DNA from: a virus
Lineage: Duplodnaviria; Caudoviricetes
Direction: 5' to 3' (one strand)
IMG/VR virus record: IMGVR_UViG_3300043416_000465
Coordinates: 1-37,958 of that record
DNA: 37,958 nt
Shown here: in pieces, positions 20,181 through 37,958 of the stretch
How the letters are laid out: every line of letters begins with the position of its first letter
How positions within the stretch are numbered: position 1 is the stretch's first letter
The notes under the pieces: model-generated
The model's input: only the letters and a program-made list of their open reading frames with translations
The model's database searches: none
What the model was told of the DNA's origin: nothing
Made by a program: the position numbers and the translations under genes

Positions 20181-21113
20181 TTACTTAGGAGCACAGGCAG
20201 ACATCGCCGCCGCGTAACTCATACCTGGATTAGCTTTCATTTTGGCCTTGATCTTTTTGTCCATGGCCATTGAGGGATCTTCGTCTTCGTCTTCGTCCAC
20301 AGACATGGCCGCAAATTCGGCAGATTCAGCAGCGGCTTGGCTATTGTCCTTGCCATAAGGGATCGCCTTTTTAGCTATAGCTTGCGCCAAAAACTCGATC
20401 GCTGCATTACCGCCAGATCTTGACGCTGCAAACTCCGCTGAAAACTGTTCGGCGGGCACCATCGCCAGTTTTGTGAAAACATCTACCATTCCGGCCTGGT
20501 CTTTTGGGGCTATTGCGCCCTTGGCCACCAATTCGGCAACGATTGGGAGCACCTGAGACGCGGCATTAAACTGGGCTGTTTTCTTTGCGAACGCCTCTTG
20601 GTCGGCCTTCAGCTTGGCCTGCGCGGCTAATAGCTCTTCTTCGTCCATGTTTTTTACTCGTATAAAGGATACTTTCTGAGTGCTGAATTGAGCCACCTTG
20701 AGCTGATCAAGCGATACATCCTCGCCTTTCGGGAAGAAACCGACGTGATCAAACTCGAAGCCCCCGCTAGTGTTCTGCGGGTTGCCGGGAAGTCGGATCT
20801 TTGCAGAAACCTTTGCTGACAGGCTATTGATGATCCTGGCCGCTCCGTCACTTAGCCCATCATAGGCAACGCAAACAGCCCGACCAGCCCCGTTAATGGC
20901 CAGCCGCGTGGCGTAGCCAAACGCGGCCTCATTAGTCTGCGGATGACGCATAACCAAAGGCAGCCTCTGACCCGATCGATTAAAATGGCCGACGCTAGCC
21001 TGTAGCTCTTCAGCCGAAACGGGCACCACTAGACCGCTATAGTCCCTGTGTCGCCCTGGGTAAAAGATCTCTACCGGCCTTAAATCAGCCACCCCGCACC
21101 GCACCCTGATCAA
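20181..21113 (-). CDS. Mu gpI-like prohead protease with C-terminal scaffold (possible internal start MDEEEL at 20648)
   Basis: VEIFYPGRH, PLVMRHP, AFGY, KVSA, DHVGF motifs; C-terminus NPGMSYAAAMSAC is typical of scaffold capsid-binding tails. Confidence 0.8.
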   Translation of the reverse strand: MIRVRCGVADLRPVEIFYPGRHRDYSGLVVPVSAEELQASVGHFNRSGQRLPLVMRHPQTNEAAFGYATRLAINGAGRAVCVAYDGLSDGAARIINSLSAKVSAKIRLPGNPQNTSGGFEFDHVGFFPKGEDVSLDQLKVAQFSTQKVSFIRVKNMDEEELLAAQAKLKADQEAFAKKTAQFNAASQVLPIVAELVAKGAIAPKDQAGMVDVFTKLAMVPAEQFSAEFAASRSGGNAAIEFLAQAIAKKAIPYGKDNSQAAAESAEFAAMSVDEDEDEDPSMAMDKKIKAKMKANPGMSYAAAMSACAPK

Positions 21114-22293: not shown

Positions 22294-22294
22294 G

Positions 22295-23240: not shown

Positions 23241-23243
23241 CTT

Positions 23244-23363
23244 ATGTCTAAGAAGCAAATAGCAGAGCGCGATCGACAATCAAGAGAGCGCATGGAAAAG
23301 CTCAAAAAGCTCTCTGATGCAGAGCTGGCCAAATTAACCGACTATTCACTATTCAATCAATAA
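23244..23363 (+). CDS. 39-aa hypothetical protein (MSKKQIAERDRQ...)
   Basis: Manual translation; below the ORF-track cutoff; first ORF of the operon. Confidence 0.5.
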   Translation: MSKKQIAERDRQSRERMEKLKKLSDAELAKLTDYSLFNQ

Positions 23364-23369
23364 AGCAAA

Positions 23370-23495
23370 ATGACTTACCAAGAAATAATTGAAGGACTAA
23401 CCAGCGGCTCTCCAATGATCCGAGAGCAAGCCGCGATCGAGTACCTAAAGCTCAAGCACGGGGCAAACATTGACTACCCACAGGAATGGCGATGA
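23370..23495 (+). CDS. 41-aa hypothetical protein (MTYQEIIEGL...)
   Basis: Manual translation; stop overlaps the next start. Confidence 0.5.
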   Translation: MTYQEIIEGLTSGSPMIREQAAIEYLKLKHGANIDYPQEWR

Positions 23496-23884
23496 TATTA
23501 GTTTTTGCCCCACCAATAGGAACAGCCGGTAGAGATGCCACCGACCTCGTTTTTGCCCGCATATTTAATGGGTCGGCCTTAAATACACGGCAGACTTTGA
23601 TCAAGAACGCGCCTCCCCTACCGGCCTACAAACCCAGTAAGCCCGATCGGGTATTTGTTGATAAACCGATCGAGAGCGACTCTACAGACTCAGTAACTAG
23701 GCACAGAAAAGACGGCAGATTAATAGACCTTCATCCCATCACTGAGGACGGGGGGTACTGGCTGAAGTGCGATGGATGCAGGAACTACGCATTGTTTAAT
23801 GTGCACTGGGTAGATATAGAGGACTCAAGAGAGTTTGACAGGTTCCGCGCCTGCGCCAAACACGCTCAGCGGTGGATGCCATGA
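23486..23884 (+). CDS. Hypothetical protein with CxxC...CxxH zinc-binding motif
   Basis: KCDGC and ACAKH. Confidence 0.6.
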   Translation: MAMILVFAPPIGTAGRDATDLVFARIFNGSALNTRQTLIKNAPPLPAYKPSKPDRVFVDKPIESDSTDSVTRHRKDGRLIDLHPITEDGGYWLKCDGCRNYALFNVHWVDIEDSREFDRFRACAKHAQRWMP

Positions 23885-24198
23885 TCCCCCAATACTGGCT
23901 AGTACTCCGATCTGACGGAACCCCTGACGCTTATCTATTGGCTGATTCAATAGAATCAGCCTGGTCAAAAATTCCGGCTGACTACACTGTTCGCCCCCTA
24001 AAAGTTAGCGATAACACAGCCGGACTGATCAAGGTGAATTCCCGCACCTACCGCCTAGACAGGCCAGACCCAGCCACCCAAAAAATAAATGTTTCGGTCT
24101 ATCTAACCCCAGAAAATCATTCTTGGTACAACCGACAACCCAACAAAACGGCAGCAATAAACAAATTAATTAGTGAGAAAATGAATGAGCAACGTTAG
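23881..24198 (+). CDS. Hypothetical protein with C-terminal ribbon-helix-helix-like segment
   Basis: KINVSVYLTPE...NKTAAINKLI; ATGA coupling at 23881. Confidence 0.55.
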   Translation: MIPQYWLVLRSDGTPDAYLLADSIESAWSKIPADYTVRPLKVSDNTAGLIKVNSRTYRLDRPDPATQKINVSVYLTPENHSWYNRQPNKTAAINKLISEKMNEQR

Positions 24199-24484
24199 AC
24201 TATTTGCCTTGAATGACAACAAGATTGAATTAGTGGTTGATGAAAAAACCGTAGGGCTTGCAAGACTGGCAAAAATCACTGATACCCCAATCGGTTTTGG
24301 CTCCAATATTTGTCCAGATATCATCGGCCTCGCAAATTTGGATGACGCGACCCCAAGCTCGCTGGTTTACAGCCTCGAATTCTTTACTGGCTTGAATTTG
24401 CTTTGCATCAGCCAGGAGTATATCGAGCCAGCAATTAACGATTTAATCGCTGCTGAATCAATAGATAGCAAGGAGTTTTTCTAA
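24185..24484 (+). CDS. Hypothetical protein
   Basis: Overlap-coupled within the early operon. Confidence 0.6.
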   Translation: MSNVRLFALNDNKIELVVDEKTVGLARLAKITDTPIGFGSNICPDIIGLANLDDATPSSLVYSLEFFTGLNLLCISQEYIEPAINDLIAAESIDSKEFF

Positions 24485-25140
24485 TGATTAATAAATCTAA
24501 CTTACTCCCTGCTCTAATTGCAGCCAAAAAACTTTTTAAGCCGTTGAAGAAAGACAAGGCCAACCCTTTCCACAAATCTAAATACACAAGCCTTGATGCA
24601 GTATTGGCCTCAGTTGAGCCAGCGCTGCTAGAAAATGGATTGGTTCTGACGCACAAAATTGATGAGGGGCACCTAATAACTATTCTCTATCACGAGAGCG
24701 GGGAAGAGATGGCTAGCACAGTCAAGCTTCCGGAATCGATCGATCCTCAAAAGATCGGCTCTGCTCTCACCTATTACCGCCGGTATGCGATTTGTGGATT
24801 ACTTTCAGTTTGTGCCGACGAGGATGATGATGCTCAATCGGCTAGCGATGAAAGCAAGAAGTTTGCGACTGTGCCCCGCTCACAACGGCCAGATCCACCA
24901 CTATACAAGCCGACACCAAAAGAAGTCTGCCAGCAGGAAGTAATCAGCCTGATTAGAGAAATTGGCTGGACAAAAGCTCAGAGTAAAAAGTGGGCGGCAG
25001 ATTTCTCCGATGAGCCTAAAGAAGACTGGCCTTTAGGTATGTGGGAGCAAGCTAGAGAGAAATTAATGCACGTCTTAGACGAAGTAATTCAGCAGCGAGA
25101 TCTAGAGGAGGATCTCGTAGCTAGTGGGCATACCGTCTGA
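24484..25140 (+). CDS. erf: ERF-family single-strand annealing recombinase
   Basis: KDKANPFHKSKYTSLD...HESGE...PQKIGSALTYYRRY...DEDDDA. Confidence 0.92.
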   Translation: MINKSNLLPALIAAKKLFKPLKKDKANPFHKSKYTSLDAVLASVEPALLENGLVLTHKIDEGHLITILYHESGEEMASTVKLPESIDPQKIGSALTYYRRYAICGLLSVCADEDDDAQSASDESKKFATVPRSQRPDPPLYKPTPKEVCQQEVISLIREIGWTKAQSKKWAADFSDEPKEDWPLGMWEQAREKLMHVLDEVIQQRDLEEDLVASGHTV

Positions 25141-25343
25141 TGCCCGCATATTTTCACGTTTCGACAGGTGCCGAAAATCGCCGAATTCGGCTAAAGGACA
25201 TTGAAAGTTTTTGGCCAACTCCGCCGAGCATCGTTTCCCTTAAGGCCGATCCGATCGGCACCACGATCTTGCTGAAAGACGGCACCCAAATAGATTTGGA
25301 TATGTCGATCGAGGATTTGAGATCACATATAAAAGGATGGTAA
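25140..25343 (+). CDS. Hypothetical protein
   Basis: TGATG coupling to erf. Confidence 0.6.
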   Translation: MPAYFHVSTGAENRRIRLKDIESFWPTPPSIVSLKADPIGTTILLKDGTQIDLDMSIEDLRSHIKGW

Positions 25344-25345
25344 TA

Positions 25346-26212
25346 ATGGCTAAGCCATTTCTCAAATGGGCTGGCGGGAAAGCCAAGCTAGCCCCTAAAA
25401 TTGCTGAATTATTGCCTGAAGAACTTGGCGTGTATCATGAGCCGTTTCTAGGCGGTGGCGCTGTATTCTTGCATTTGGCCGAAAATAAATTAATAAATAG
25501 ATTCAGCCTTTCAGATCAGTGCAGAGATTTAATTAGATGCTGGCAAATGCTGGCGATCAAAGGAGGTGTAGAAGATTTGCTTCCCACATTGGGCAGAATG
25601 AATCACCCAATTTGGTCGAGAGAACTTTACGATGAATTGAGGGGATGGGATCGAGATCCTAACTGGCATAAAAATGGCAGCTATACCTGCCACACTTCAG
25701 ATCAGAAAGTGGCGAGGTTCTTGCTGCTCAACAAACTCGGCTTCAATGGGGTGTGTCGGTATAATTCTCGCGGTGAGTTTAACGTGCCTTGGGGTAAAAG
25801 GACTACCTACAAGATGCCGGAGGAGTCCTATCTAATGGATATCCATAAGCTGTTGCGAGGCCGTACCGCCATCAGGTGCTGGGACTATAAAACCGCACTA
25901 CAAACCGCGCAGCCTGGAGATTTCGCCTATCTCGATCCGCCGTATGTCCCTCTCTCCAAAGCTGGCTTTACTAGCTATTCAGGGGCGTGGGGCGAAAAAC
26001 AGCAGCAGGAGCTATTTGCTGAGCTACAACGGCTCGACAAGCTCGGTGTGCGGTGGATGCTCTCTGGGCATGATGAGCCAACGTATCGAGCTTTGTACAG
26101 TAGCGATAATTTTAGGGTCTTGGATATCACTGAGATTTATGTCCGGCGCTCAGTGGCCGCCAATGGCGATCGGCCAAAAGTTAAAGAACTAATAATCAGG
26201 AATTACATCTAG
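25346..26212 (+). CDS. DNA adenine methyltransferase, Dam/D12 class
   Basis: KPFLKWAGGK, EPFLGGGAV, LNKLGFNGVCRYN..G.FNVPWG, YLDPPY, ELIIRNY. An alternative start at 25337 is possible. Confidence 0.93.
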   Translation: MAKPFLKWAGGKAKLAPKIAELLPEELGVYHEPFLGGGAVFLHLAENKLINRFSLSDQCRDLIRCWQMLAIKGGVEDLLPTLGRMNHPIWSRELYDELRGWDRDPNWHKNGSYTCHTSDQKVARFLLLNKLGFNGVCRYNSRGEFNVPWGKRTTYKMPEESYLMDIHKLLRGRTAIRCWDYKTALQTAQPGDFAYLDPPYVPLSKAGFTSYSGAWGEKQQQELFAELQRLDKLGVRWMLSGHDEPTYRALYSSDNFRVLDITEIYVRRSVAANGDRPKVKELIIRNYI

Positions 26213-26218
26213 GTGACT

Positions 26219-26392
26219 ATGAATTGCAGTAAGGACGTATATTTTAAAGCCCGTCGCGGTAGGAAAGTGATCCATAAGCGCCTTTTACCTGACAGCCTAA
26301 CAGAAGCTATGTGTGGGGCATTTGGCCACACCAGCAACTACGCCAACTTAGTTAATTGCCAAAAATGTTTGCAATCAAAAAAATCCAGCTAA
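26219..26392 (+). CDS. 57-aa putative zinc-finger protein
   Basis: Manual translation; AGGTG RBS; H...MCG...NCQKC pattern. Confidence 0.55.
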   Translation: MNCSKDVYFKARRGRKVIHKRLLPDSLTEAMCGAFGHTSNYANLVNCQKCLQSKKSS

Positions 26393-26400
26393 AAACCCGC

Positions 26401-27528
26401 TCAAATATCTGGCTGCCCCAATTCCCGGCTGATACCAAGGTAGCTACTCACCAACACTCTGGGCGAATTACCAACTAACTTGGCAATATCTTGGATTCTT
26501 GCCCCAGAATCCAAAGCCAAAGTTATATAAGTGTGTCGAGTTTGGTACGGATTTTTGGGCGGGACTTGGGCGGTTTCCAATGCCTCATACCACGGGGAGG
26601 ATCTTTTGCTTCTCCCAGGCTTACGACTGAAATTCCCCCAAACAATCAGCCCACCTTTTTCTGCCGGAAAGACCAAGCCATTCCCCTTCACCCCCAAAGC
26701 TTCCAAAATCTTTGGTGAGAGGGGGATTTTTCTTGCCACCTGACTTTTCAGGCCAGCCGTCACTACTTTCTGCCCAAATTCCCCAAACCCAGCCGACTCC
26801 ACCAGCAAGATGTGAGTAGAGCTGACATTTTCCCACCGCAGGGCGATCGCCTCGCTTGGTCGGGCACCAGTGTAAAACAAAAACTGAACCAGTCGCCAAA
26901 AGTGGCAGTGTTTTGTGTGCAGCCTGAAAGTCGCAATTATTCGATCGCGCTCCTCAGCCGTGAATGGGTCGATGTCTGGCTTGCTCTGGTTCTTTGGCTT
27001 GGGTATGGCCAGATTCTCAAATGGGTTTTGGTCAATCTTCCCCATTTGCACACCCCACTTACCCATCGCATTGATAGCCACCATCCACCGCCTTGCCACC
27101 TCGATCGAGTAATTATCCAATACCCAAGCCCGAATTTTTGCCCCTGATTCTAATTTGTATGGGCATTTTTCCACCAAATTTTGGTGGTGGCGATATTGGC
27201 CAAAAATCGTGGTGGTGCCCAAAGATGGAGCTTTAAATTCAGTAAATTGCTCCCAAAGTTCTAAAAAAGTAATTTTGGCAACCTTGGCCGGTGGCTTGCT
27301 AGGTTCAAAATCTGTCCCGCGATATTTGCTCAGTGTTGGATCGTATTGCCCGATGAAAATATCTTGCTCAATTTCTCTGGCAGTCCAACTAGCAATCGTT
27401 CGATTCTGCTCAGTATCAGCAAGGCCAGTCCCAAGGTAATTTCTTTTTTTTGCTGGGTATACCCAAACTAATTGCAATAGCCCCCGATTAACCCTGGTGG
27501 ACACCTTGACCGCTTTTCGTATGCTCAA
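26401..27528 (-). CDS. int: Tyrosine integrase with N-terminal arm-binding (DUF3596-like) domain
   Basis: GLLQLVW...YLGTGLADT N-terminus; TGARPSEAIALRW (R), K, YQTRHT (YxxR variant of HxxR), LVGNS, catalytic Y in SSYL. Confidence 0.92.
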   Translation of the reverse strand: MSIRKAVKVSTRVNRGLLQLVWVYPAKKRNYLGTGLADTEQNRTIASWTAREIEQDIFIGQYDPTLSKYRGTDFEPSKPPAKVAKITFLELWEQFTEFKAPSLGTTTIFGQYRHHQNLVEKCPYKLESGAKIRAWVLDNYSIEVARRWMVAINAMGKWGVQMGKIDQNPFENLAIPKPKNQSKPDIDPFTAEERDRIIATFRLHTKHCHFWRLVQFLFYTGARPSEAIALRWENVSSTHILLVESAGFGEFGQKVVTAGLKSQVARKIPLSPKILEALGVKGNGLVFPAEKGGLIVWGNFSRKPGRSKRSSPWYEALETAQVPPKNPYQTRHTYITLALDSGARIQDIAKLVGNSPRVLVSSYLGISRELGQPDI

Positions 27529-27535
27529 AATCTTT

Positions 27536-27554
27536 CACCCACTTTTCACCCATT
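27536..27554. repeat. Integrase arm-type site, 19-bp direct repeat copy 1 (CACCCACTTTTCACCCATT)
   Basis: Identical to 27767-27785; the pair flanks the att core and each copy holds two CACCCA units 11 bp apart. Confidence 0.75.
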
Positions 27555-27636
27555 TACCTATTTAGAGATTAGATAATAAGTGAACACAATACAAGTGAGC
27601 CAACAAAATGTTGATCGCCATTATCGGCCAAAACAA

Positions 27637-27662
27637 AAGCCACTCATGCTTTTGAGTGGCTT
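27637..27662 (-). terminator. Intrinsic terminator downstream of the tRNA 3' half
   Basis: Perfect 10-bp stem AAGCCACTCA/TGAGTGGCTT, 6-nt loop, followed by TTGTTTT on the - strand. Confidence 0.8.
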
Positions 27663-27672
27663 GCAGTATAGA

Positions 27673-27717
27673 TGGGTGATCCGAGATTTGAACTCGGAAC
27701 CAATTGATTAAGAGTCA
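27673..27717 (-). mobile_element. attP core: 3' half of tRNA-Lys(CTT)
   Basis: - strand reads TGACT-CTT-AATCAATTGGTTCCGAG-TTCAAAT-CTCGG-ATCACCCA: anticodon loop, T-arm and acceptor 3' strand. No D-arm or 5' acceptor strand upstream. Confidence 0.88.
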
Positions 27718-27766
27718 GTAGTGCGGCTGTTGCCAGAAGCTGATTCTGGCTCGTGTATTCTTGTTG

Positions 27767-27785
27767 CACCCACTTTTCACCCATT
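27767..27785. repeat. Integrase arm-type site, 19-bp direct repeat copy 2
   Basis: Identical to 27536-27554; overlaps the stop of the excisionase-like gene. Confidence 0.75.
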
Positions 27786-28211
27786 CTTTAATTTTTCGCG
27801 TAACCATCGCTGATGGTCTTTTAGCTGGTTGGATGCCCAGTGCTGCAACGGTTCCTTGTTCCAGCGGATTGATCGAGTGCCGTGCTTCAACCAGTGCACT
27901 CCCTCAAGGAGTCCTTTGTCCTTAAATCTTTGGCAAGTCCGATAATTATTCAAAGTGGCGATCGACAATTTAGCAATTTCAGACGCTTCTTTATTGCTTA
28001 AAAGCGTTAATTCGCCTCCCCATTTTTTACCAGAAGGCTGAATATCTGGGCGTTGTGTATCGATATTTAGGTACTGCTCGATCGCAACTTCCACTAATTT
28101 TCCTACCTTGTCCCCTTTGCTTTCGGCCAGCATTTTAAGACGGTTGAATACATCTCCGCTAACTCGTGAAGAAACGACCTTCTTCCAGCTTGAGCTGCTA
28201 GCTTTGACCAT
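27777..28211 (-). CDS. RHH (CopG-like) + excisionase-like HTH fusion protein
   Basis: VVSSRVSGDVFNRLKMLAESKG...LVEVAIEQYL (RHH); LLSNKEASEIAKLSIATLNNYR...EGVHW...IRWN (Xis/MerR-like). Adjacent to attP. Start re-called to MVKASS. Confidence 0.7.
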   Translation of the reverse strand: MVKASSSSWKKVVSSRVSGDVFNRLKMLAESKGDKVGKLVEVAIEQYLNIDTQRPDIQPSGKKWGGELTLLSNKEASEIAKLSIATLNNYRTCQRFKDKGLLEGVHWLKHGTRSIRWNKEPLQHWASNQLKDHQRWLREKLKNG

Positions 28212-28224
28212 TTTTAATACCTGC

Positions 28225-28248
28225 TTATTTGATGTATACATCAAATAA
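28225..28248. promoter_or_regulatory. Perfect 24-bp palindrome TTATTTGATGTATACATCAAATAA, probable operator
   Basis: Exactly self-complementary; lies between divergent xis-like and XRE genes. Confidence 0.7.
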
Positions 28249-28369
28249 TATCTTAAAAATGCAAACCTTACTTTGTTTTTCGACAGACTCTAGGCTGTAT
28301 GTACTCTTGACGCTCATGAAGCACGGTGTAAACATTGGCTTATACTGGACGCAGATCACAAGCAAAAGC

Positions 28370-28741
28370 ATGGAACCAACTCTTGATGAAAAATTTATTT
28401 TGATTGGACAACTCTTGCGGACTCGGCGAAAAATCCTAGGATTAGACCAACATGCAGCTAGTAAAAGGTTTGGCGTGAGCCAAGCCGCATATAGTGCCTG
28501 GGAAAATGCACGTTCCCATGCCGACAGCGACAACCTGCATAAAATAGCAATATTTTTGGGCTATTCCAGACTCTCGGAATTATGGGCAGTACTTGAGGCA
28601 AGTGTTGATGGAGAGCAATACCAAGCCAGCCAAGTCGCGCAGGCGCAAAAAATAATCGACAATCTGCCGATCAAAGATTTGGCTAACATCGGCGTAGAAA
28701 TTAGCCGCAAAATTGCGGCTCACGCTAGCCAGCTTTGCTAG
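28370..28741 (+). CDS. XRE-family HTH repressor (CI-like, no peptidase domain)
   Basis: LLRTRRKILGLDQHAASKRFGVSQAAYSAWENA...NLHKIAIFLG. Start re-called to MEPTL. Confidence 0.85.
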   Translation: MEPTLDEKFILIGQLLRTRRKILGLDQHAASKRFGVSQAAYSAWENARSHADSDNLHKIAIFLGYSRLSELWAVLEASVDGEQYQASQVAQAQKIIDNLPIKDLANIGVEISRKIAAHASQLC

Positions 28742-29820
28742 ATATATTTGATCGATTCGCAGGCTGCCTGAGCAACGATCGGCACAACCCCATTACCAAT
28801 CAACCGAACGGCGATTCGGCAATCATCGCCCAGAAACCAATTATCTGGGTAGCCTTGAAGTCGCTGCAAAGCGATTGAGTTAATGCCTTTTACTACCGCC
28901 CCCTGATTCAGCACGGCACGGCTACGGCCTTTCGAGCTAGCAGTGATTGTATTAGACGGCAATTCCCTTGACCGTGGGCAGCATTGCCACCCGCCGGAAA
29001 CCAAGTAAGCGTCTAGATATTTTTCGCGTTTGTTGCCACGGCCATCAGCTCCTAGAGATGCCCTAATAGTGCCGATCGGCTCATTCTCTGCCCAATATTT
29101 TGGCTCTTTACCAAAATAGCCAATCCGCTGAACTACGCTACTGACAGAACATTGATTGACGGCCTCTTGCTGCCGATCGGTTAGTGCGCTGTCCGGCAGA
29201 TCTGGAATCAGATCTGCGATTGCATTCAGCCAACCACGCCACCTTGGCAGCCCAAGAATAGCGCTTTTTTTTTCGTTCCAATTGCAGTGAGTTTGAACGA
29301 TCGGCATCAGCGCCGCCTTTTTAGGGTCTACCGCCAAAATTATCAGTCGCCGCCGGGTTTGTGGAGCACCAAAATCGGCGGCGTTTAAGATTTGACTCTG
29401 CACCACGTAGCCCGATCGGACCAAATTAGAGATCAACATCTGGCAGCTTTTAGAGCCTAGATATGGTGGCACGTTTTCGATCAAAACTGCCGCAGGCTTC
29501 CACACTGCCACGAATTCAGCCACCTTGAGAGATAACCATTGATCTATAAAAGTTTCCTTGCCGCCGACCTTGGCCACACTAAAGGATGGGCAGGGAGGCG
29601 AGGCCATGAGTAAATCTGGCCGATCAAACTCCTTGCTAGTCGGATCACACTGCAAAAGATTTTTGCACCATGCGTCACCGCTCACGTTTTGGCGGTAGGC
29701 ATTGATCGCCGGTTGCCAATAGTCGATCGCGCCGATCGGGAGATAGCCAGCATTGATCGCACCTTGGGTCTTGCCCCCAGCTCCGCAAAATAGTGAAAAT
29801 ACAGTCTTCTGCTTAGGCAT
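28738..29820 (-). CDS. DNA cytosine-C5 methyltransferase
   Basis: Motifs SLFCGAGG (I), SPPCPSFS (IV), ENV (VI), QTRRRL (VIII), RLQGYPD (IX), IGNGV (X). Start may be 29820 or 29898. Confidence 0.93.
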   Translation of the reverse strand: MPKQKTVFSLFCGAGGKTQGAINAGYLPIGAIDYWQPAINAYRQNVSGDAWCKNLLQCDPTSKEFDRPDLLMASPPCPSFSVAKVGGKETFIDQWLSLKVAEFVAVWKPAAVLIENVPPYLGSKSCQMLISNLVRSGYVVQSQILNAADFGAPQTRRRLIILAVDPKKAALMPIVQTHCNWNEKKSAILGLPRWRGWLNAIADLIPDLPDSALTDRQQEAVNQCSVSSVVQRIGYFGKEPKYWAENEPIGTIRASLGADGRGNKREKYLDAYLVSGGWQCCPRSRELPSNTITASSKGRSRAVLNQGAVVKGINSIALQRLQGYPDNWFLGDDCRIAVRLIGNGVVPIVAQAACESIKYI

Positions 29821-29894
29821 TAAGTCGCGGCCTCGTAGTACTCCAATAGCTCGCCGATTGGGTACCGGCAGATCCAAATCACAACTACACATTT

Positions 29895-30149
29895 TCAATC
29901 TCCTTCATTTTCGCCTGTCTGTAGTTGTTGTTTATTTTTTAAATCCGCGCAAATTGCCAGAGTCCATTCAGCCCCATCGGTAACGGCTCCCTTTTCACCT
30001 ATCAATGAACCCTTGTCGATATTGAGGGGGAGTGTCCTCAGTTCCTTGATGATGAACAGCTCCTCATCAACAAGAATCGTGATCATGATTATGTCGTCGT
30101 CAGTGTGGCCTTTCAGCGCGTCGATTAGCTCTCTTTTGGTAAAAATCAT
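29895..30149 (-). CDS. Hypothetical protein
   Basis: MIFTKRELIDALKG..DDDII, a common small-phage-protein N-terminal pattern. Confidence 0.6.
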   Translation of the reverse strand: MIFTKRELIDALKGHTDDDIIMITILVDEELFIIKELRTLPLNIDKGSLIGEKGAVTDGAEWTLAICADLKNKQQLQTGENEGD

Positions 30150-30170
30150 TGGTTTTCTCTTTGTAATTAC

Positions 30171-30857
30171 TTATTTTTCAACTTCACCAATCGCAGCCAA
30201 AACCCGATCCCTTTGCGCTGCTGGCAGCCTCCCCCCTGGCGCTCCAGATTTGCCGCGCAAAATTAGCCGCACAGTAGAAGGCTTGATTTCTCCAGATCGA
30301 AGCAGACGGCAGAGGCTATCAGCCCTGTCAGATCCATCGGCATCGCAGTAATCAGTGCGGCATGTTTTTCCGTGAGAATCAATAAAAGTCTCAACCTGGA
30401 ACGATGGGCTTGGGTTTCCCGACAGACTGATAGTTTCCCTGGCTGGTGGCAGTCCACCGGAGCCGACCTGCAAGTTATCGAAAAATTCCTTCTTCAGACG
30501 GTCAAGCTCACTATACGCTCCTTCGACCTTAGCCATAGCTACAGCCCTGACCCCGCCAATTGACTGGAGAGCGATCGCAGCTTGGCCACTAATCTCGCAG
30601 CTCTCGTATCTTCCTTGAGCAACTCCCATAATGCCTTCCCAGTCGTCGCGAGGGTTCACCCCTGCAACGGCTTGGAGGAAATCGGAAGGCTTAGGCACTT
30701 TATCGCTACAAATACTCCACCAGCAATCCATTAGCTGCTGATCAGATACCGAGGAAGTGCAGCCCATCCAGCCAGTCAGTAGCGCATCAGAGAAAGGCTT
30801 TCCATGAACATCGCAAGCCGCTATCAGATGATTTTTTAAGCAATCTAAGCTAGCCAT
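30171..30857 (-). CDS. Replication accessory protein / helicase-loader-like (DUF6475-like)
   Basis: Overlaps the initiator; PKPSDF, W..I, ALQSIGG, KKEF motifs. Confidence 0.55.
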   Translation of the reverse strand: MASLDCLKNHLIAACDVHGKPFSDALLTGWMGCTSSVSDQQLMDCWWSICSDKVPKPSDFLQAVAGVNPRDDWEGIMGVAQGRYESCEISGQAAIALQSIGGVRAVAMAKVEGAYSELDRLKKEFFDNLQVGSGGLPPARETISLSGNPSPSFQVETFIDSHGKTCRTDYCDADGSDRADSLCRLLRSGEIKPSTVRLILRGKSGAPGGRLPAAQRDRVLAAIGEVEK

Positions 30858-32050
30858 TCATCACCTACATAAATATCGTAATTTGGAAAATAGAAATTAG
30901 CCCAATCCTTCTCTAGCTTGCTGATAGATTCTCCAGCTTTTGCAGCCTTTGAAATCTTCCACCAAATACCCATCGCCCAAGTTTTTATTGTTGGATTGCC
31001 TTGCAAGTCGTGGTACTGAATTTGTTCTTTTTGCTGGGCAATTTTCAACGCCGCTCCAACTTTTGAAGAGTCGGGCAAAGATCGCCATTGGTAGGCATAA
31101 TCGACCAGCCGATCTTGGTTGCCAGATCTGCCGATTAAATAGCCAAAATGCTTACTTTCAAAATCTGGCTTGTTGAGCCATTCCGACTTGGCAGCCCACA
31201 ACGTTGCATCCCGTACCAAGGATATAAACTCATCTGGGGATCTGCCCGGAACCGTCAGCATTCTTTCGAGGCTATTTCTCGCGCTGTTGCTCAATCCTAC
31301 GCACTCGCCCCAAGCCCCTCGGTACTGGTTATAAGTGTTGATCGCTTGATCGACATAGGCGGATCGCTCATCAGCCGATGAGCGCCCCTGTAAGGCTGCT
31401 CTTTTTTGCTGCATGAGTATTTCATCACGCGATAGAGTCAAGGTGGTTTGCTGGTCATTCTCGGCGGGAGTGCTGCGCGAAACAGATGTGATCTCCTGAG
31501 TCGGATTTTTTCCAGGAGGCGACTGTGGTTGCTTTGCCGTGAGCTGGGATTTTTGCTCGGTGGCTGTTGGCTGAACGGGCAAATCAAATTTTTGATCGCA
31601 CACCTGCACGGCTACGCGCTCCGGATCTGCTTTGCTCTGGATCTGTTCTGTATTCTGATTCTGTTCTGTATCTGAGGACGTTCCCTTTCTGTTCCTGGGA
31701 ACGTTCCCGGAACGCTCCTTTTCTGTTTTCTTCTTTTCTTTATGCGCTGAAGTCCTTGCGGTGACATCATCGGAGAGAAACTGGCGCTTTCCCCATTTGG
31801 AAATCAAATAGCCCCCGTCTTGATGCTCGATCATGCCCTTGGCTCGGAACTTGTCGATCGCTGATTGCCACTGCTCTAAATTGATTCTTAGCTTCCAACA
31901 AATTTCAGTATCAGATAACAAGATTGTCCCTCTTTTGCTAGAGCTATTTGCAAGGCACAATGCTTTCACCCACAACAATTGGTCGCTGTCGTTCATCATG
32001 GCAATTTTAGGATCATCCATAAACTCATCGTAAAATCTAAACCACTTCAT
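30845..32050 (-). CDS. Phage replication initiator (replisome-organizer N-terminal domain)
   Basis: MKWFRFYDEFMDDPKI...LWVKALCLA...ISKWGKRQ, then a basic segment and a DTEQNQNTEQ linker. GGAG RBS before ATG 32050. Confidence 0.8.
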   Translation of the reverse strand: MKWFRFYDEFMDDPKIAMMNDSDQLLWVKALCLANSSSKRGTILLSDTEICWKLRINLEQWQSAIDKFRAKGMIEHQDGGYLISKWGKRQFLSDDVTARTSAHKEKKKTEKERSGNVPRNRKGTSSDTEQNQNTEQIQSKADPERVAVQVCDQKFDLPVQPTATEQKSQLTAKQPQSPPGKNPTQEITSVSRSTPAENDQQTTLTLSRDEILMQQKRAALQGRSSADERSAYVDQAINTYNQYRGAWGECVGLSNSARNSLERMLTVPGRSPDEFISLVRDATLWAAKSEWLNKPDFESKHFGYLIGRSGNQDRLVDYAYQWRSLPDSSKVGAALKIAQQKEQIQYHDLQGNPTIKTWAMGIWWKISKAAKAGESISKLEKDWANFYFPNYDIYVGDEWLA

Positions 32051-32149
32051 TTTCGACTCCTTTTTTCTGACTTTTAAGAATAAGTTTGTCGATATTTTCA
32101 GAGGTAATTGCAAAGGATCTGGCATCCTCAAACAGAGTTAGTTGTTTTG

Positions 32150-32575
32150 TCACTTTTCATCTCCAAATTTCCTGTACTTAACAACCCCTGCTGGCATCGG
32201 ACACCCTGGCAAAAAATAAAAGTGAGCCTTGCCGATATCAGCCCGATGCAACTTATCCTCTTTGTAAAGTCGCTCGACTTCGATCGAGGTGGCCTGTAGT
32301 TGCATTTTGGCTCCTGAGCTGATCTGGGCTTTTGTCCCCCAGCCAGCAGCTTCTAAGTAGCCAAGGACTCTAGCCGATCGGCTTTCTTCAGTACGTGTAG
32401 GCTTTTCCACGCATTCGACTAGTGTGCGGTCTTTGATACGCCGCCTGCCCTCCGGCGATACATAGGTACTGCCCACAACCCCGAACCTTTGCTCAAAGGT
32501 GTCTGGGCAATGATCCACGGGCTTGGGGTCGATATCTAAGTCGCCAAGAACTGAAACAGTAGAAACGCTACCCAC
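32150..32575 (-). CDS. Winged-helix DNA-binding protein
   Basis: RVLGYLEAAG..TKAQIS...VERLYKEDKLHR...HFYFL. Confidence 0.6.
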   Translation of the reverse strand: MGSVSTVSVLGDLDIDPKPVDHCPDTFEQRFGVVGSTYVSPEGRRRIKDRTLVECVEKPTRTEESRSARVLGYLEAAGWGTKAQISSGAKMQLQATSIEVERLYKEDKLHRADIGKAHFYFLPGCPMPAGVVKYRKFGDEK

Positions 32576-32741
32576 CGATCGCCCCCTTGGCTACAGCTTT
32601 CTTGATCGCAGCTTTAATTAAATCGTTGCCAATTTGGCTATAGCTCTTCCCTTCCGCCTCGCAAAGCTCCCTAAGCCGCGCCTTAAGCGCCTTGGGTAGT
32701 AAAATCACTACTTTGTCGTCCCGTTCTAAAATCTTAGTCAC
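32568..32741 (-). CDS. 57-aa RHH (CopG/Arc-like) regulator, Cro-like position
   Basis: Manual translation from GTG: MTKILERDDKVVILLPKALKARLRELCEAEGKSYSQIGNDLIKAAI...; AAGG upstream. Confidence 0.75.
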   Translation of the reverse strand: MTKILERDDKVVILLPKALKARLRELCEAEGKSYSQIGNDLIKAAIKKAVAKGAIGG

Positions 32742-32765
32742 AAAGTCAACCTTAAAAACATATTA

Positions 32766-32818
32766 AAAATAATATAGCGTACCTTGTAAAATAATTGCAA
32801 GGTACGCTATATTATTTT
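32766..32818. promoter_or_regulatory. 21-bp perfect inverted repeat with 11-bp spacer; overlapping divergent promoters/operator
   Basis: AAAATAATATAGCGTACCTTG-N11-CAAGGTACGCTATATTATTTT. Gives TTGTAA-18-TATATT on + and TTGCAA-18-TATATT on -. Confidence 0.7.
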
Positions 32819-32869
32819 GGGCGTGATTCAATCAAAACAAGCCCGAGGGCACAGCAACAGGGGTCTAAG

Positions 32870-33035
32870 TATGAACAAAAAACTAGCTATACGTGCGATC
32901 AAGGCTGCCTTGATCGCACGTATTACAGATATCAACCCCGAATCAATCGGTAGTGAGGTGCTCTTTAGCAGTCACTTTGATCTAATGGAATCCAATCCAT
33001 TAGATCGAGCTAAAACCAAGAACCGGCTTAACTAG
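32870..33035 (+). CDS. Small hypothetical protein (MNKKLAIRAIK...)
   Basis: ATG near 32870 downstream of the + promoter; start approximate. Confidence 0.4.
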
Positions 33036-33699
33036 AAATTAACAATTCGCCGCGCATAAAATCTTTCAATACTTGATCGACCTTCATTTGGTCGATTTTT
33101 TTATCGATACCGCCTCGGTACAAAAAGCCCGGATCTGGTTCCAAACTAAATACTGACAACTTTCCACCGCTGCGATCAAGATCGCGATCGCTCAGGCTAA
33201 AGATTTGGCACGTACAGCCAAATCCCGCTGGTGGAAATACTACAACATCTTCGGCCTTGAATATTTTGCCGTCCATAGCCAAATGCTCTGGTCTTGGATC
33301 GCCACTTCCTCCGTGCCGCCACTGCCAATATGGTCGATCGGCCACGGTTTCCCTCATCTGCTGCTGCCGCCCCATTCCATAGGCTTGCCGGATGTTCTGA
33401 TCGTAGATTAGCTGCGCTCTCCATGCCGATTTGCCCACCCATCGATCGGTTACTTTTGCGAACCTATCCATAAATTGCTGCATGGATTCACCAGCACTGA
33501 TCGCCCGATCGAGCGTGTCGTGGATATCCTGCAATAGAGCTGCTTTCGTTCCAGCCACCGTAAAGTTAGCCAGTTGCACAATGCCTTGGCCGTCCTTCCA
33601 GGTATCGGTATCTAAGTTGGTTTTTTGGGCGAAATAGTCGATCGCCTCGTCCATCTCCAGCCGTTGATCATCAATGCCATAATCGTACAGCCTACTCAT
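33028..33699 (-). CDS. Head morphogenesis protein MuF (Mu gp30), no toxin extension
   Basis: EAIDYF..K, FTVAG, RAQLIYDQNIRQAYGMGR, RPYWQW, PRPEHLAMDG, PPAGFGCTC, PDPGF. Start probably MSRLYD. Confidence 0.9.
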   Translation of the reverse strand: MSRLYDYGIDDQRLEMDEAIDYFAQKTNLDTDTWKDGQGIVQLANFTVAGTKAALLQDIHDTLDRAISAGESMQQFMDRFAKVTDRWVGKSAWRAQLIYDQNIRQAYGMGRQQQMRETVADRPYWQWRHGGSGDPRPEHLAMDGKIFKAEDVVVFPPAGFGCTCQIFSLSDRDLDRSGGKLSVFSLEPDPGFLYRGGIDKKIDQMKVDQVLKDFMRGELLISS

Positions 33700-34183
33700 T
33701 TTCAGCCTCAAAATATCCGCCTAGGCTAGCCAAGGTTAAATAATTTTCAACCTGCATTTCTGCGCCACTTAATTCTGGGTACAGCTCAAAAATCGCATTT
33801 TTAGCAGTCGGCAGATCATCAGCCGTCAAGATCACATCTTTGATAGTAATCATCCAGTCCCTGATCGCTTCGTCTCCAGCAGCCTTGAAGCTGGAAATCA
33901 GTTGCTCCTGGGTATCTGGGTTTTTGGAGAATCTTGCCTGTGCCTCCGAGCTGGCAAGATCGCTGTAGTTCGCTAGCCGGATTGATGCTTGCTTGTCGCC
34001 AATTTTTATTGCCAGGATTTTTTTCCCATCTTGCCCGATCGCAACAATGTCGCCATTGTCATCAATTTTGGCCGCTAGAATCGCATCCATCCCATCGCCG
34101 TATGGTGGATCTTGCCCTTCGACGGCTGCCGTATTTAGGTAGTCGAGGATTTTTGGCCATTTTTCTTTATTGATTAATTCCAT
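33692..34183 (-). CDS. Unknown N-terminal domain + portal-type C-terminal helical segment
   Basis: C-half WMITIKDVILTADDLPTAKNAIFELYPEL...LASLGGYFE resembles the usual DUF935 portal C-terminus that precedes MuF; AGGA RBS. Confidence 0.65.
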   Translation of the reverse strand: MELINKEKWPKILDYLNTAAVEGQDPPYGDGMDAILAAKIDDNGDIVAIGQDGKKILAIKIGDKQASIRLANYSDLASSEAQARFSKNPDTQEQLISSFKAAGDEAIRDWMITIKDVILTADDLPTAKNAIFELYPELSGAEMQVENYLTLASLGGYFEAENE

Positions 34184-34218
34184 TTTTCCTGGGTATTATA
34201 TTTGATTAATTTTATAGT

Positions 34219-34482
34219 TTAAGGGATCGCCCCAGCAGGCAAAGGATCTATAGCAGCAGCAAGCAGATCTGCTCCTTTTTTTATTTCATAGGGCAGTTTC
34301 ATATTTATCAAAGCCGCGATTAAATCGCGTGGCGAACACACATTCCCAATCATTTGATCCCTGCCAAATGCGGCATACAGCCAGTTCGCCAGCTCTTGAT
34401 CACGGCAAGTGATTTGTGATGATTCATCGGCATCACCTGTTTTTAGACTTATTTCAATATCGCCAACAGCAACTACAAACAT
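34219..34482 (-). CDS. Small protein abutting the HExxH gene (immunity/partner candidate)
   Basis: 87 aa; ATG immediately follows the TAA of the 539-aa gene. Confidence 0.6.
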   Translation of the reverse strand: MFVVAVGDIEISLKTGDADESSQITCRDQELANWLYAAFGRDQMIGNVCSPRDLIAALINMKLPYEIKKGADLLAAAIDPLPAGAIP

Positions 34483-36102
34483 TTATACCTTAAGTACTTT
34501 TTCTAATACAAAATCAAAATGGTCTTTGGCTTCCGAGCGAAGCCTCAGCATACCTTCCGCTGTCGAAAAATGCTCCAACCCGACTGATACAACCTCGGTT
34601 GCAGCTTGATCGGGGTAGACTTTCCCAACATACTCTATAAGGTAGCTATCGGCTAGTGCAACCTCATCATCTCCATAGCCTTTATTTTGGGTAAGATCAC
34701 TAAGTCGCTGCAATTTCCCATTCCCAGCTTTTCTATTACGCCAATCCTTAGCAGCAGAGAGCAGACCATTATCGCTAAACTCGATGTGGTGAGCAAATTC
34801 GTGGTACAAAGTAGAGTTTGCGGATTGCCTGTATACCAGCAGCCCAGCGGGGCTGGCATATGCTCGGCCTTTTCCCATAACTACATCTTTCAATGTTGGG
34901 GGAATGCCTCCTGTTAGCTGAACAATTTCGGCCAAATCACGCTGGGTTTGCCTTATGGATCGATCAGCCATCGGTTGCCCAGTAAAGTCCTTGCTGTAAG
35001 TCAGATTTGCAGCAAGGACAATAGCCTTGGCTGCTGCTGAGTCGATCTTCTTCAGCTCAGTCCTGAGATCTTTAGCAGCCAGTAAAGCGTCTTCCTTCGG
35101 CCGGTCAAGGGCATAAGATAGCTCTGTCCTCTCTGCCCACAATTGATCTTTGCGAGCTTGAAACTGCTCAATGTCCTCGCCCTTCGATCGGGCTATTGCT
35201 AGGACTTCGCGAGTTTTGTCCTTCAACGCCTTTTCCCGAGCGTGAAACAAGGAGATCTTTTGATCTAAATCATTCAATTTTGCCGTAATTTTTAGAGATC
35301 GGCCGTTTTGCTTCTTCGGTTCCGAGGAATTCTTTTCAAATGCCCTCAGCTCCTTCTTGAGGGCTTTAGCTGCCCTCTGCTGCTCCAGTGTCATGGTAAT
35401 TCGGCAAGTCTTCTTACCCGAAATACAGCTATACCCACAACTGTGGCTAGTGGATTTACATTTAGGCTTTTCTCTCCCAGCGTCTTTGTTCGCGCCCTTG
35501 AATTCTGCGAACCCGCCCCCAGCCTTCCTTAGCACGCCATTCTCAGCGTTGTGTAGCCAGCGGTGGATTTCATACTGAGATGGGTTCCGGGGCAACGCGC
35601 TGGGCTGCTCCCCCACGGCGTAAGACTGTGCGGGGATCTTGATATCATCGGCTGCCCCGTAGAAGTTAATGAGTCCTTCGCCGATCAAAACATTTCGCCC
35701 CTCGATCAACAGCGACCCGCCAGAAGTCTCAAATTTGAAGCTACCAGTGTCGAATAAACTTGGCTTTCGATCAACCGTTACGGCATCCCCCGATCGACTA
35801 ACCGAGTAAGGTTGGCGAGTATTCAGATCATCTATCAGATCTTGTTCATCCTTTTCATACTGCCGATCTGCCTCCTCTTGATCGGCCTCTTCTTCTAGTC
35901 GCTCAGCTATTTCCGATTTGCTTTCAAGCAAGTCGCCGGTTTCAGCCGATCTCCACCGGCTATCTTTTAAATGGTAATTTTTACCATTTATCACCTTCTT
36001 GCTACCCTCTGGCAGCTTGGCGAATTCAGCAGTAGGAAGGTAGTTCACCGCCGCAAAGTTGGCCGCCGTTTCCCATGTTATTAGGTCAAGATCTAATTTC
36101 AA
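34483..36102 (-). CDS. Multidomain protein with Cys-motif, coiled coil and C-terminal zincin-like HExxH domain
   Basis: KPKCKSTSHSCGYSCISGKKTCRI; LYHEFAHHIE...YVGKVY...TEVVSVGLE. TTGA overlap with the portal stop. Confidence 0.8.
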   Translation of the reverse strand: MKLDLDLITWETAANFAAVNYLPTAEFAKLPEGSKKVINGKNYHLKDSRWRSAETGDLLESKSEIAERLEEEADQEEADRQYEKDEQDLIDDLNTRQPYSVSRSGDAVTVDRKPSLFDTGSFKFETSGGSLLIEGRNVLIGEGLINFYGAADDIKIPAQSYAVGEQPSALPRNPSQYEIHRWLHNAENGVLRKAGGGFAEFKGANKDAGREKPKCKSTSHSCGYSCISGKKTCRITMTLEQQRAAKALKKELRAFEKNSSEPKKQNGRSLKITAKLNDLDQKISLFHAREKALKDKTREVLAIARSKGEDIEQFQARKDQLWAERTELSYALDRPKEDALLAAKDLRTELKKIDSAAAKAIVLAANLTYSKDFTGQPMADRSIRQTQRDLAEIVQLTGGIPPTLKDVVMGKGRAYASPAGLLVYRQSANSTLYHEFAHHIEFSDNGLLSAAKDWRNRKAGNGKLQRLSDLTQNKGYGDDEVALADSYLIEYVGKVYPDQAATEVVSVGLEHFSTAEGMLRLRSEAKDHFDFVLEKVLKV

Positions 36103-37949
36103 AATTTACCCCCTTTGATAATTTCGGCGATCGAGCTGTACAGCTCTTTTTGCACTGCCAACTGTTTCTCGCCATTAGCCACGCGCAAGGCTGCCGCGCT
36201 TAGCGCCTTAGCGATCGGGCCTGAATCGTTCTTGAGCTGGTCAAAAACCGCCATCGTCTGCGCCGATTGCTGAGCAATGTCCTTACTCGCGGCCTGGTCG
36301 ATCACGTTGTTGCCTCTGGCCAATTCTTTGGCCGCCTGAGATCGAGATACTAAGCCAAAAATCTTCTTGTCTTTGCCTAACTGGTTCCGAATCGCGTTAG
36401 CTAAGCTCGCCCGCTCGATCGCGTTGGTCTTGGTTTCCATCGTGCTCCCAAATAAATCGAATTGCTCCACTTGGTTGCTGCTACTGGCCTTCACTCCTGC
36501 GACCAATTCGGCCAAAACCCCATCATTCAACTTTCTGCCCTTTTTCTCTGCCAGCTCATACAGATCGCGCTGTTGCTCTGGCTTCAATCCAGCCTCACCG
36601 ATGATCGCCGCCCGTGATTCAGCCAGATCACCGTTTACCACCTTGGTAAACAAAGTTGGTTCCAGCTTGGCGATCGCTAGTCCCTTTTGGGCGATCTGCT
36701 CCCTCATGGGTATCCCTTTCTTTTTCAAGTCGTCGATCGTCAGCCCCGTGTCCTTGAAAAACTTCGCCGCATCCAAGCCAGTGCCCCGGCCTTCCGCAAT
36801 GTTGGTCAGAGCGCCGATCGCCCGTGCGTGTGCCGCGTCTGGTGCGTCGATTATGCGAGCTGTCACCTTTTCAGCTCCCGCCCGGTTGGCAAGTGCTAGC
36901 CTATTATGCCCATTAATCACATATAAACCACCATCAGCAGGATCTTTCCACACCTGGACAATTCCCGCTAAGTTTGGATCGTAAGTACTAACACCCGACA
37001 AGCTGCCCGCTTCGCCGGTTTTGGTCTGCTGACCGATGATTTTATATTGGAAACGCTTTGGATCGGCCTTAATGTCCGTGGCATCAATTTCGCCAACAAA
37101 TCCCGCCTCTAACTTAGGCTTGGCCGCGATCGACTCCGCTAGATCTGCCTTCAACTTAGCGATCGCCTGCTGCATTTCGGCTGTTGCCTCAATCCTGCAA
37201 GTTTTCTTGCCACTGATGCAAGTTTTGCCGCATGAGTGACTGCCTGGGTTGCATTTGGGCTTTTTGCGCTCTGCTTTGCTGGGCATTCCCTTGAATTCAG
37301 CCGCCTGCAAACGGGCTAATAACGCCTCAGCGATCGGCAGTAGTGGATCTGCCGAGAATTTAGCGCTATCAAGCAATTCTTGCGCCTTTTCTGGCGATGG
37401 TGGTGCTGGCGACTGCCCTGGAGCAGCTCCACCCCCAAGATTTTTGGTAATGGAGGTGATCGCCTTATCAGGCCAGCTTGGGAATGCGCCGGATATTAAG
37501 CCAGCAACTAGCTCAGGCTTCCATCCGCCTTGTTGGGCATTGCTGACAATCGACACCAAGGCATTTACCTGCTCACCATTTAATTGAGTGAGCGCGTCAT
37601 CGGCCTCTGGTATCTCATATTCATCGCCATACTTGGCGGCAATTGCGTCAGCCTTCAGTTTGATGCCTAGCGCCGAAAGCACGGTGTCAGTATCGGCCTC
37701 AGTCCTAATGTCCTTGCTGTCGAATTGCCGCCAGACCTTGGGTATAGCCGCCCCTGGATAGTTCCACTGGGTCAGGTTTTTGCCGATCGACCGACTAAAG
37801 CTCTGGCACATCACATCAGATAGCTGTTTCGCCATGGCCAGCCCAATATCGGCGTGAACCTCAGCCTGCGATCGACTGCTGCCATCATCAGTAGTCATCG
37901 TCTGGCCATTAATGATCTTGGAGATCGCCGCATTACAGATATCCACCAT
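36099..37949 (-). CDS. Portal protein C-terminal part fused to a Cys-motif and a ParB-like domain (total about 903 aa with 1..861)
   Basis: Begins ISKIINGQTMTT...SRSQAEVH (DUF935 core). Then a Gly/Pro linker, KPKCNPGSHSCGKTCISGKKTCRI, and RFQYK...VWKDPADGGLYVINGHNRLALA (ParB/Srx-like GHxR signature). Confidence 0.85.
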   Translation of the reverse strand: MVDICNAAISKIINGQTMTTDDGSSRSQAEVHADIGLAMAKQLSDVMCQSFSRSIGKNLTQWNYPGAAIPKVWRQFDSKDIRTEADTDTVLSALGIKLKADAIAAKYGDEYEIPEADDALTQLNGEQVNALVSIVSNAQQGGWKPELVAGLISGAFPSWPDKAITSITKNLGGGAAPGQSPAPPSPEKAQELLDSAKFSADPLLPIAEALLARLQAAEFKGMPSKAERKKPKCNPGSHSCGKTCISGKKTCRIEATAEMQQAIAKLKADLAESIAAKPKLEAGFVGEIDATDIKADPKRFQYKIIGQQTKTGEAGSLSGVSTYDPNLAGIVQVWKDPADGGLYVINGHNRLALANRAGAEKVTARIIDAPDAAHARAIGALTNIAEGRGTGLDAAKFFKDTGLTIDDLKKKGIPMREQIAQKGLAIAKLEPTLFTKVVNGDLAESRAAIIGEAGLKPEQQRDLYELAEKKGRKLNDGVLAELVAGVKASSSNQVEQFDLFGSTMETKTNAIERASLANAIRNQLGKDKKIFGLVSRSQAAKELARGNNVIDQAASKDIAQQSAQTMAVFDQLKNDSGPIAKALSAAALRVANGEKQLAVQKELYSSIAEIIKGGKF

Positions 37950-37958
37950 GCCCTGATA
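37950..37958. repeat. 9-bp terminal overlap GCCCTGATA identical to 1-9 (circular contig junction)
   Basis: Identical sequence at both ends; removing one copy restores a continuous portal ORF. Confidence 0.85.

Follow-up and report, generated by a model that had tools for sequence, protein, structure and literature searches.

The window analysed here, the whole 37,958-nt stretch of record IMGVR_UViG_3300043416_000465, represents the genome of an uncultured temperate phage, circular and complete, which encodes a Mu-like head, an integrase and a long tape measure. Its portal locus encodes proteins built from modules that are joined at a short A-x-F mark. An earlier note had proposed that A-x-F is the cut site of the phage's prohead protease, and that the locus encodes polyproteins whose effector domains are packaged, released and injected with the DNA. 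Throughout the B3/BcepMu-type head family, this mark closes the protease domain as well as the core of the portal, and it is the point at which cargo is swapped. The mark is very probably a prohead protease site, and packaging of the cargo is almost as well founded. Injection of at least part of the cargo as effectors seems fairly likely, and we hold to a similar degree the reading as a whole, in which the marks are cut by the phage's own protease and the freed, packaged cargo enters the next host.

The Phe mark in B3/BcepMu-type heads

The six A-x-F motifs listed in the earlier note translate at the positions given there, except that the Ser leading SAKFSA (37350-37364) falls one codon outside that interval, which encodes AKFSA. 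The motif is repeated in the protease/scaffold protein (AQFS, AQFN, AEFA and AEFA), as had been claimed. A genome-wide count of A-x-F-[ASKN] bears out an enrichment in head-locus proteins (10, against 2.7 in shuffles), with tail (2 against 3.1) and early proteins (2 against 1.9) at chance level. This enrichment within the window is post hoc, and the weight is carried by independent tests in relatives.

These tests were made on 64 non-redundant loci, of which 42 are scorable for the protease mark and 33 have the portal C-terminal domain. Within the first 12 residues past the protease domain, F[ASKN] occurs in 34/42 loci (control windows, 89/389); it also stands at most 36 residues ahead of the portal C-terminal domain in 30/33 (control, 95/297). 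Strict Ala is found in distant relatives at only 12/42 and 14/33 sites; the residue two before Phe is chiefly Ala, Val or Pro. The density of x[EQD]F[AS] in protease/scaffold proteins is 4.7-fold over shuffles, compared with 0.7-1.7 in gpG, MuF, portal, capsid and terminase. Both marks are present in the cultured phages B3 and Lsp-JY19. By sequence comparison, x-x-F-[A/S] is thus a family-wide B3/BcepMu-type mark and not particular to this phage. It follows that the mark is ancestral to the head family and that the cyanophage branch adds cargo onto it.

Variable-domain boundaries in relatives cluster at the mark, as had been predicted: 26/64 internal alignment starts lie within 8 aa of it (4.4 expected), although these are not independent events and many come from the same module. 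This clustering of breakpoints, together with a GAATTC common to three sites in the window, might suggest that the marks are remnants of DNA homology acting as crossover points, without meaning at the protein level. Such an origin is very improbable. Codons at 43 mark sites show synonymous variation much like background, scans of the junctions revealed neither DNA repeats nor a promoter excess, the listed repeat families are all located away from the sites, and the mark is retained in invariant loci of distant phages.

The protease-scaffold fusion of the window is homologous to BcepMu gp32 and B3 ORF36. Its His and Ser are invariant across 58 sequences, its model (pLDDT 91) matches phage prohead peptidases in BFVD (E 1.8e-9), and, as modelled, it looks like an active assemblin-like prohead protease. 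Because the mark stands at the boundary of the protease itself and changes with the protease (see below), it is best read as a cut site. In HK97, T4 and the assemblins, cuts precede a small residue. By analogy the cut is placed after Phe, since comparable cuts, such as that after Glu in the P1 capsid (E120/S121, PMC9024508), are reported before a small residue. The proposed A-x-F is thus most likely a protease site, but it is a family-wide one that is better written [A/V/P]-x-F-[A/S].

Phage Mu shares with the window a DUF935 portal, a homologous portal C-terminal domain (profile E 2.6e-6) and a protease-scaffold fusion, but its protease has no match to the B3-type profile and its portal carries no cargo. 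The Mu portal gp29 is reported to be present in the virion without its last 124 residues, a loss ascribed to protease I (PMC11915804). In Mu (L498, 2055-3593 and 5557-6642), Ala-Leu-Ser-Ala or Ala-Leu-Ala-Ala words are seen by eye ahead of the portal C-terminal domain, behind the protease domain and within the scaffold; these are a candidate Leu version of the rule.

Alternatively, x-x-F-[A/S] might serve in docking to the surface of the capsid or scaffold, with the proteins packaged whole. Binding motifs can be repeated, as this one is in the scaffold, the cut after Phe is placed by analogy, and some peptidase-bearing polyvalent proteins, e.g., the N4 virion RNA polymerase, are described as packaged unprocessed (PMC5512222). 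Docking is nevertheless improbable, given that the mark coincides exactly with the junction of protease and scaffold and with the portal tail removed in Mu, and that a small residue follows Phe. The mark also changes with the protease family, but capsid and protease families switch together, so that this point separates docking from cutting incompletely.

The opened portal and its cargo

The 616-aa open reading frame (ORF) that had been described as the portal is indeed portal, but merely the C-terminal portion of a 903-aa protein whose N-terminal 287 aa are encoded at the other end of the window (Table 1); homologues of 913-918 aa are Portal_Mu. The ends of the window overlap by 9 nt, and the portal frame continues through the join. 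A 2880-nt contig from a separate run, X4, spans both ends with the identical 9-nt overlap (window 35837-37958 corresponds to 1-2122 of that record, and window 1-767 to 2114-2880). Misassembly was considered and rejected: the locus is intact in one X1 contig (X1 is possibly the source run), and most of it is also covered by X4 in long pieces without differences. Runs with small shares (X5-X10) were not counted as assembly evidence.

Table 1. Features of the portal locus and of the protease gene in the window
Feature	Position	Strand	Remarks
Portal, N-terminal 287 aa	1..861	-	runs on across origin; whole protein 903 aa
B3/BcepMu-type prohead protease-scaffold	20181..21113	-	His (20943-20945) and Ser (20805-20807) kept
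Protease-scaffold marks	20682-20693, 20565-20576, 20427-20438, 20310-20321	-	
MuF	33028..33711	-	227 aa, without C-terminal cargo
Detached C-terminal domain of DUF935 portal	33695..33925	-	129/136 profile matches are portals
A-R-F-S mark	33926..33937	-	
Domain Y of 163-aa ORF	33944..34183	-	mostly N-terminal leader of cargo proteins
87-aa ORF	34219..34482	-	directly behind peptidase gene
539-aa cargo polyprotein	34483..36102	-	leader, SRW module, domain X, Cys module, coil, metallopeptidase
Zincin-type metallopeptidase	34486..35001	-	HEFAH (34789-34803) and invariant third-ligand Glu
Basic four-cysteine module, copy 2	35404..35460	-	
A-E-F-K mark, 539-aa protein	35497..35508	-	
Domain X	35509..35940	-	deleted exactly between marks in P0002 and P0004
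Short basic 'SRW' module	35953..36009	-	after x-[EK]-F mark in 10/10 distinct pattern matches
27-aa leader	36019..36102	-	ANFA (36052-36063), AEFA (36019-36030)
Portal, C-terminal part	36099..37958	-	Portal_Mu core end, helical insert, two marks, Cys module, ParB-fold cargo
ParB/Noc-fold cargo domain	36102..37112	-	337 aa
Basic four-cysteine module, copy 1	37197..37253	-	
A-E-F-K mark, portal	37290..37301	-	swapped-module similarity starts at or near mark
A-K-F-S mark	37353..37364	-	end of predicted mature portal

Ordinary B3-type portals are ~500 aa in length, and the mark that precedes their C-terminal domain matches the A-K-F-S mark in position. A profile of this C-terminal domain, built on the 77 aa at the end of the 163-aa ORF, yielded 136 protein matches in 222 loci. 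In the cyanophage branch the portal is split at the mark, and in the window its C-terminal domain is detached into the 163-aa ORF. After the mark, portal homologues carry ParB, peptidase, ART, kinase or DnaJ domains, or an H-N-H-P domain that we take to be JAB/RadC-like; in P0012 the entire content of the 539-aa protein is mounted on the portal. Opening of the portal locus at the motif and exchange of modules there are therefore borne out, and homologous cargo is found in virions of a related cyanophage (see below).

The window portal carries a single cargo domain, whose AF2 model (pLDDT 80) matches Noc/ParB in Foldseek (E 1.8e-4) and which is also present on heads that use other proteases. 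A DdrB-like identity (PF18763) was tried and rejected, as 0/14 members match the ddrB-ParB profile and hhalign gives E 0.24; the ParB of P1 DdrB likewise did not align with the window domain. The T7-like Prochlorococcus phage P-SCSP1g (L229, 4741-12432) has a ParB-fold domain of 37% identity inside a 2563-aa protein downstream of the tail tubular gene.

The 539-aa protein carries a peptidase plus domain X. Its 27-aa leader is a candidate capsid-targeting sequence and is reused on other cargo; P1 DarB is reported to have a short capsid-targeting sequence as well. Domain X has no match in Pfam or PHROG and none usable in the Atlas, and in P0006 it is fused to the 163-aa protein. The Cys motifs, HExxH, 87-aa and 163-aa ORFs and short MuF are all present as the earlier note described them. 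The metallopeptidase, whose metal ligands are intact, is a homologue of the peptidase at the C-terminus of P1 DdrB (E 3e-8). Autoproteolysis by such peptidases has been proposed (PMC5512222), and the HExxH enzyme could itself release the cargo with the marks as its sites, as suggested for DdrB. There is little to recommend this for the present system: the mark is found in B3-type loci, yet the peptidase is found in only 14/222 loci searched, and on other heads members of the same peptidase family are preceded by R-x-D or Arg marks.

The 87-aa protein is probably an inhibitor or immunity partner of the peptidase. An ORF of 70-131 aa lies behind 18/21 C-terminal peptidases (3 internal copies excluded), and 10 of these 18 align with the 87-aa protein. 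Prediction of the complex with the peptidase gave 0.35, against 0.01 for the best control. The criteria (at least 33% contact agreement and a partner pLDDT of at least 65) are passed by 116/157 solved and 2/215 mismatched pairs, with only 18 solved pairs and both mismatches at 0.60 or below, and the modelling lends the partner role weak support. P1 DdrB likewise has a small gene, hxr, behind its peptidase gene; comparison of the 87-aa family with P1 Hxr, P7 OdaA, PaV-LD 082R and pippi gp29 gave no match. Profile searches of solved structures with the peptidase, protease and ParB alignments gave nothing significant.

The first domain of the 163-aa ORF, domain Y, had been taken for an effector. 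It is more likely a targeting leader, since in the Y-Cys form it opens 23 stored proteins. Starting from a poor model of it, the Atlas gave only weak structural rows. A relation to the PaV-LD leader rests on two proteins matched by both profiles, direct profile comparison giving E 0.29. In L149 (7465-12293) there are tandem units of portal C-terminal domain, Y, Cys module and cargo, so that a duplicated portal tail serves as leader.

The earlier note had also set portal mounting apart as a separate system. This does not hold, because the MuF of close relatives bears the same peptidase, and effectors fused to MuF or portal, with proposed injection, have been published (PMC5512222; PMC9503650; PMC5576092). 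In L002, L146 and L149 the peptidase is fused to MuF with an ORF of the 87-aa family behind it; a toxin domain at the MuF C-terminus is present in these relatives and absent from the window. The window resembles MuF toxin and polyvalent-protein systems in having variable C-terminal enzyme domains on head genes and a small downstream ORF, but differs in that its MuF is bare and the cargo is found on the portal and on leader-tagged proteins.

The DUF935 (Portal_Mu) portal is followed by MuF, with gpG displaced by an early-gene block, as in L005. This 11-kb early/lysogeny block (22069-33000: antirepressor, ERF, two methylases, integrase, repressor and replication initiator) splits the head module, so that the protease gene is located ~12 kb from the portal locus; early genes occupy the same place in L005 and not in L002, and the head module of KS10 is reported to be split likewise (PMC2628397). 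Just past MuF, at the boundary of the block, there are an inverted repeat of 24 bp, near-perfect, and a hairpin resembling a terminator (32766-32818 and 32889-32923). All four runs that contain most of the locus are freshwater metagenomes, and three may be the source. The sequence GCGATCGC, presumably the cyanobacterial HIP1 repeat, occurs 11 times in the window (0.82 expected), and the closest genome match is a Chamaesiphon metagenome-assembled genome; together these suggest a cyanobacterial host.

The four-cysteine module and its marks on other heads

The basic four-cysteine module has no Pfam match in the window proteins and was found in 325 clusters at E<=0.001, using a profile seeded with F-type copies. 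A Pfam scan covered 123 proteins of at least 200 aa, out of 144 new ones among the best 150 matches. In the 24 Mu-portal fusions among these 123, 25/25 Cys modules lie at most 25 aa after F[ASKN] (background 166/727 windows, 23%) and 1/25 after R-x-D, whereas in the three Phage_portal_3 proteins 3/3 modules follow R-x-D. Pattern scans at the level of loci gave at least 155 distinct contexts, 102 of them without an assignable head. Among the matches listed, R-x-D precedes 35/39 modules in DUF2213 loci, many of which are close relatives of PaV-LD (one secreted-type protein was left out), versus 1/13 modules in B3-type loci. The DUF2213 protease of PaV-LD itself contains 9 R-x-D marks (1.1 expected).

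On HK97-type heads (lambda-type portal and S78 protease), an Arg mark without R-x-D is found at 7/7 modules, the weakest of the three mark classes. In three such loci the layout of the window is repeated, with portal-Cys-ParB, leader-Cys or peptidase, and a small ORF. With the same module and cargo shared by three head types and three marks, the mark tracks the protease family. Cargo in relatives with the Cys module includes InPase, LPD1 and (below its cut-off) ART-PolyVal; metallopeptidase, ART, ParB, InPase and LPD1 also form part of the cargo of polyvalent proteins (Iyer 2017), in which cyanobacteria were described as poor (PMC5512222).

Evidence for packaging comes from a related cyanophage, CL131. 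The cultured cyanophages PaV-LD and vB_AphaS-CL131 have the same Cys module, and PaV-LD also has a related leader domain and ART and peptidase cargo; both differ from the window in having a DUF2213 protease and R-x-D marks. In a six-frame scan of the whole CL131 genome the module was found only in ORFs 044, 045, 047 and 048. All four are among the 23 virion proteins that mass spectrometry is reported to have found for its 149 ORFs, with 9 to 105 peptides (PMC6293099 Table S5), and are listed there as hypothetical structural proteins.

Several further occurrences were observed. Small proteins of secreted type carry the module behind an apparent signal peptide, in some cases as tandem copies (L355, L358, L359, L390, P0064 and P0089), and there it may be disulfide-bonded. 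It matches the N-terminus of an S78 protease-capsid fusion in P0102, and CL131 gp012 (L495, 8800-12981) is a 1393-aa portal with an apparent MuF-like region and four R-x-D-A marks.

Proposed fate and action of the cargo

In the proposed mechanism, the C-terminal extension of the portal would face the head lumen in up to 12 copies, as in other portals, and the 27-aa leader and domain Y would recruit free cargo proteins; the 163-aa protein would bring the detached portal tail back to the prohead. Inside the prohead, the B3/BcepMu-type protease would likely cut the A-x-F-[A/S/K] marks, and cutting after Phe would strip scaffold, leaders and portal tail. A basic Cys or SRW module would be left as the new N-terminus and probably tether the cargo to DNA. 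The freed cargo would likely remain in the virion and enter the next host along with the DNA. The ParB-fold domain and metallopeptidase, and in relatives ART, kinase or DnaJ, would then act early in infection, the 87-aa protein having kept the peptidase quiet in the producing cell.

A close parallel is the P1 Dar system. DdrB is described as a head protein, and Dar proteins as processed by the protease and reportedly co-ejected (PMC12810830, PMC9024508). The Dar components (DarA, DarB, DdrA, DdrB, Hdf, Ulx) are thus similar in being internal head proteins with protease processing and reported co-ejection; none of DarA, DarB and Hdf was annotated in general scans of the window, in which no direct search for them was made. 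In T4, a single prohead protease, gp21, trims away scaffold and leaders at a short motif, and the injected proteins (IPI-III and Alt), a variable set, are matured by it. It cuts after Glu, and the injected proteins are encoded by separate small genes. The likeness to T4 lies in maturation of a variable injected set by one protease; T4 has no portal polyproteins.

A different fate is also conceivable, in which the marks do serve as protease sites and cargo is packaged, yet it acts in the head or the producing cell, in DNA condensation, packaging or assembly, and is not injected. The ParB/Noc-fold domain is the commonest cargo, DnaJ domains are frequent, the modules behind the marks are basic, and P1 DarA and Hdf are reported to shape heads as well (PMC12810830). 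We consider this rather unlikely, as ART, kinase, lipase-like and GNAT domains and a peptidase whose partner resembles an inhibitor are in keeping with action on a host, and the variability of the cargo is high.

Several points weigh against cutting and injection by the route proposed. A measured cut for a B3/BcepMu-type protease is absent from the literature searched, and matches of the window protease to PDB folds are weak (herpesvirus assemblins best, E 5.5e-3). Mu, with another protease family, lacks the F mark at the matching places. Among the matches listed, F[ASKN] taken by itself fails to separate the classes of loci (it precedes 10/13 Cys modules in B3-type and 16/39 in DUF2213 loci, p=0.052), and the Arg rule of HK97-type heads is derived from 7 modules in 3 loci, with a pattern picked afterwards and no per-protein enrichment. 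Within the window genome the mark is found also in two terminase subunits (one A-x-F-[SN] each, in the 3787 region and in terS, 3898-4524), probably by chance, and the 87-aa copy deviates from its family at two otherwise conserved positions. CL131 is DUF2213-type, and its table, without peptide positions, attests presence only, neither cleavage nor injection.

Already known are portal- and MuF-borne effectors and, as reported, removal of the Mu portal tail. The present analysis adds a Phe rule for B3/BcepMu-type heads, a portal that is split, and a single cargo toolkit seen on three types of head with three different marks. The literature searched, from which subscription papers are mostly missing, contains no cut site for B3/BcepMu-type or DUF2213 proteases and no description of the Cys module; the supplement of Iyer 2017, outside this coverage, may list these architectures. 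The available portions of the MuF and polyvalent-protein papers (PMC5576092, PMC5512222, PMC9503650) mention no junction motif, prohead-protease rule or Cys module. More speculatively, and less likely than not, cyanophages might share a portable grammar for loading and injection, composed of a leader or portal, the site of the resident protease, a basic four-cysteine tag and any enzyme. The tag, unmasked by cleavage, would bind the packaged DNA and carry the cargo into the cell, and, on transfer of the cassette to an unrelated head module, the site would be rewritten (Phe, Asp or Arg) to suit the new protease.

For B3/BcepMu-type prohead proteases these results provide a testable cleavage rule (after Phe), for which cultured B3 is suited. 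They also explain by what means effectors borne on the portal or MuF could be released, which is left open in the portions of the MuF and polyvalent literature that were available. As an unannotated marker of probable virion cargo in cyanophages, the Cys module could help to compile candidate injected effectors and, should it prove to be a delivery tag, would be a tool for cyanobacteria.

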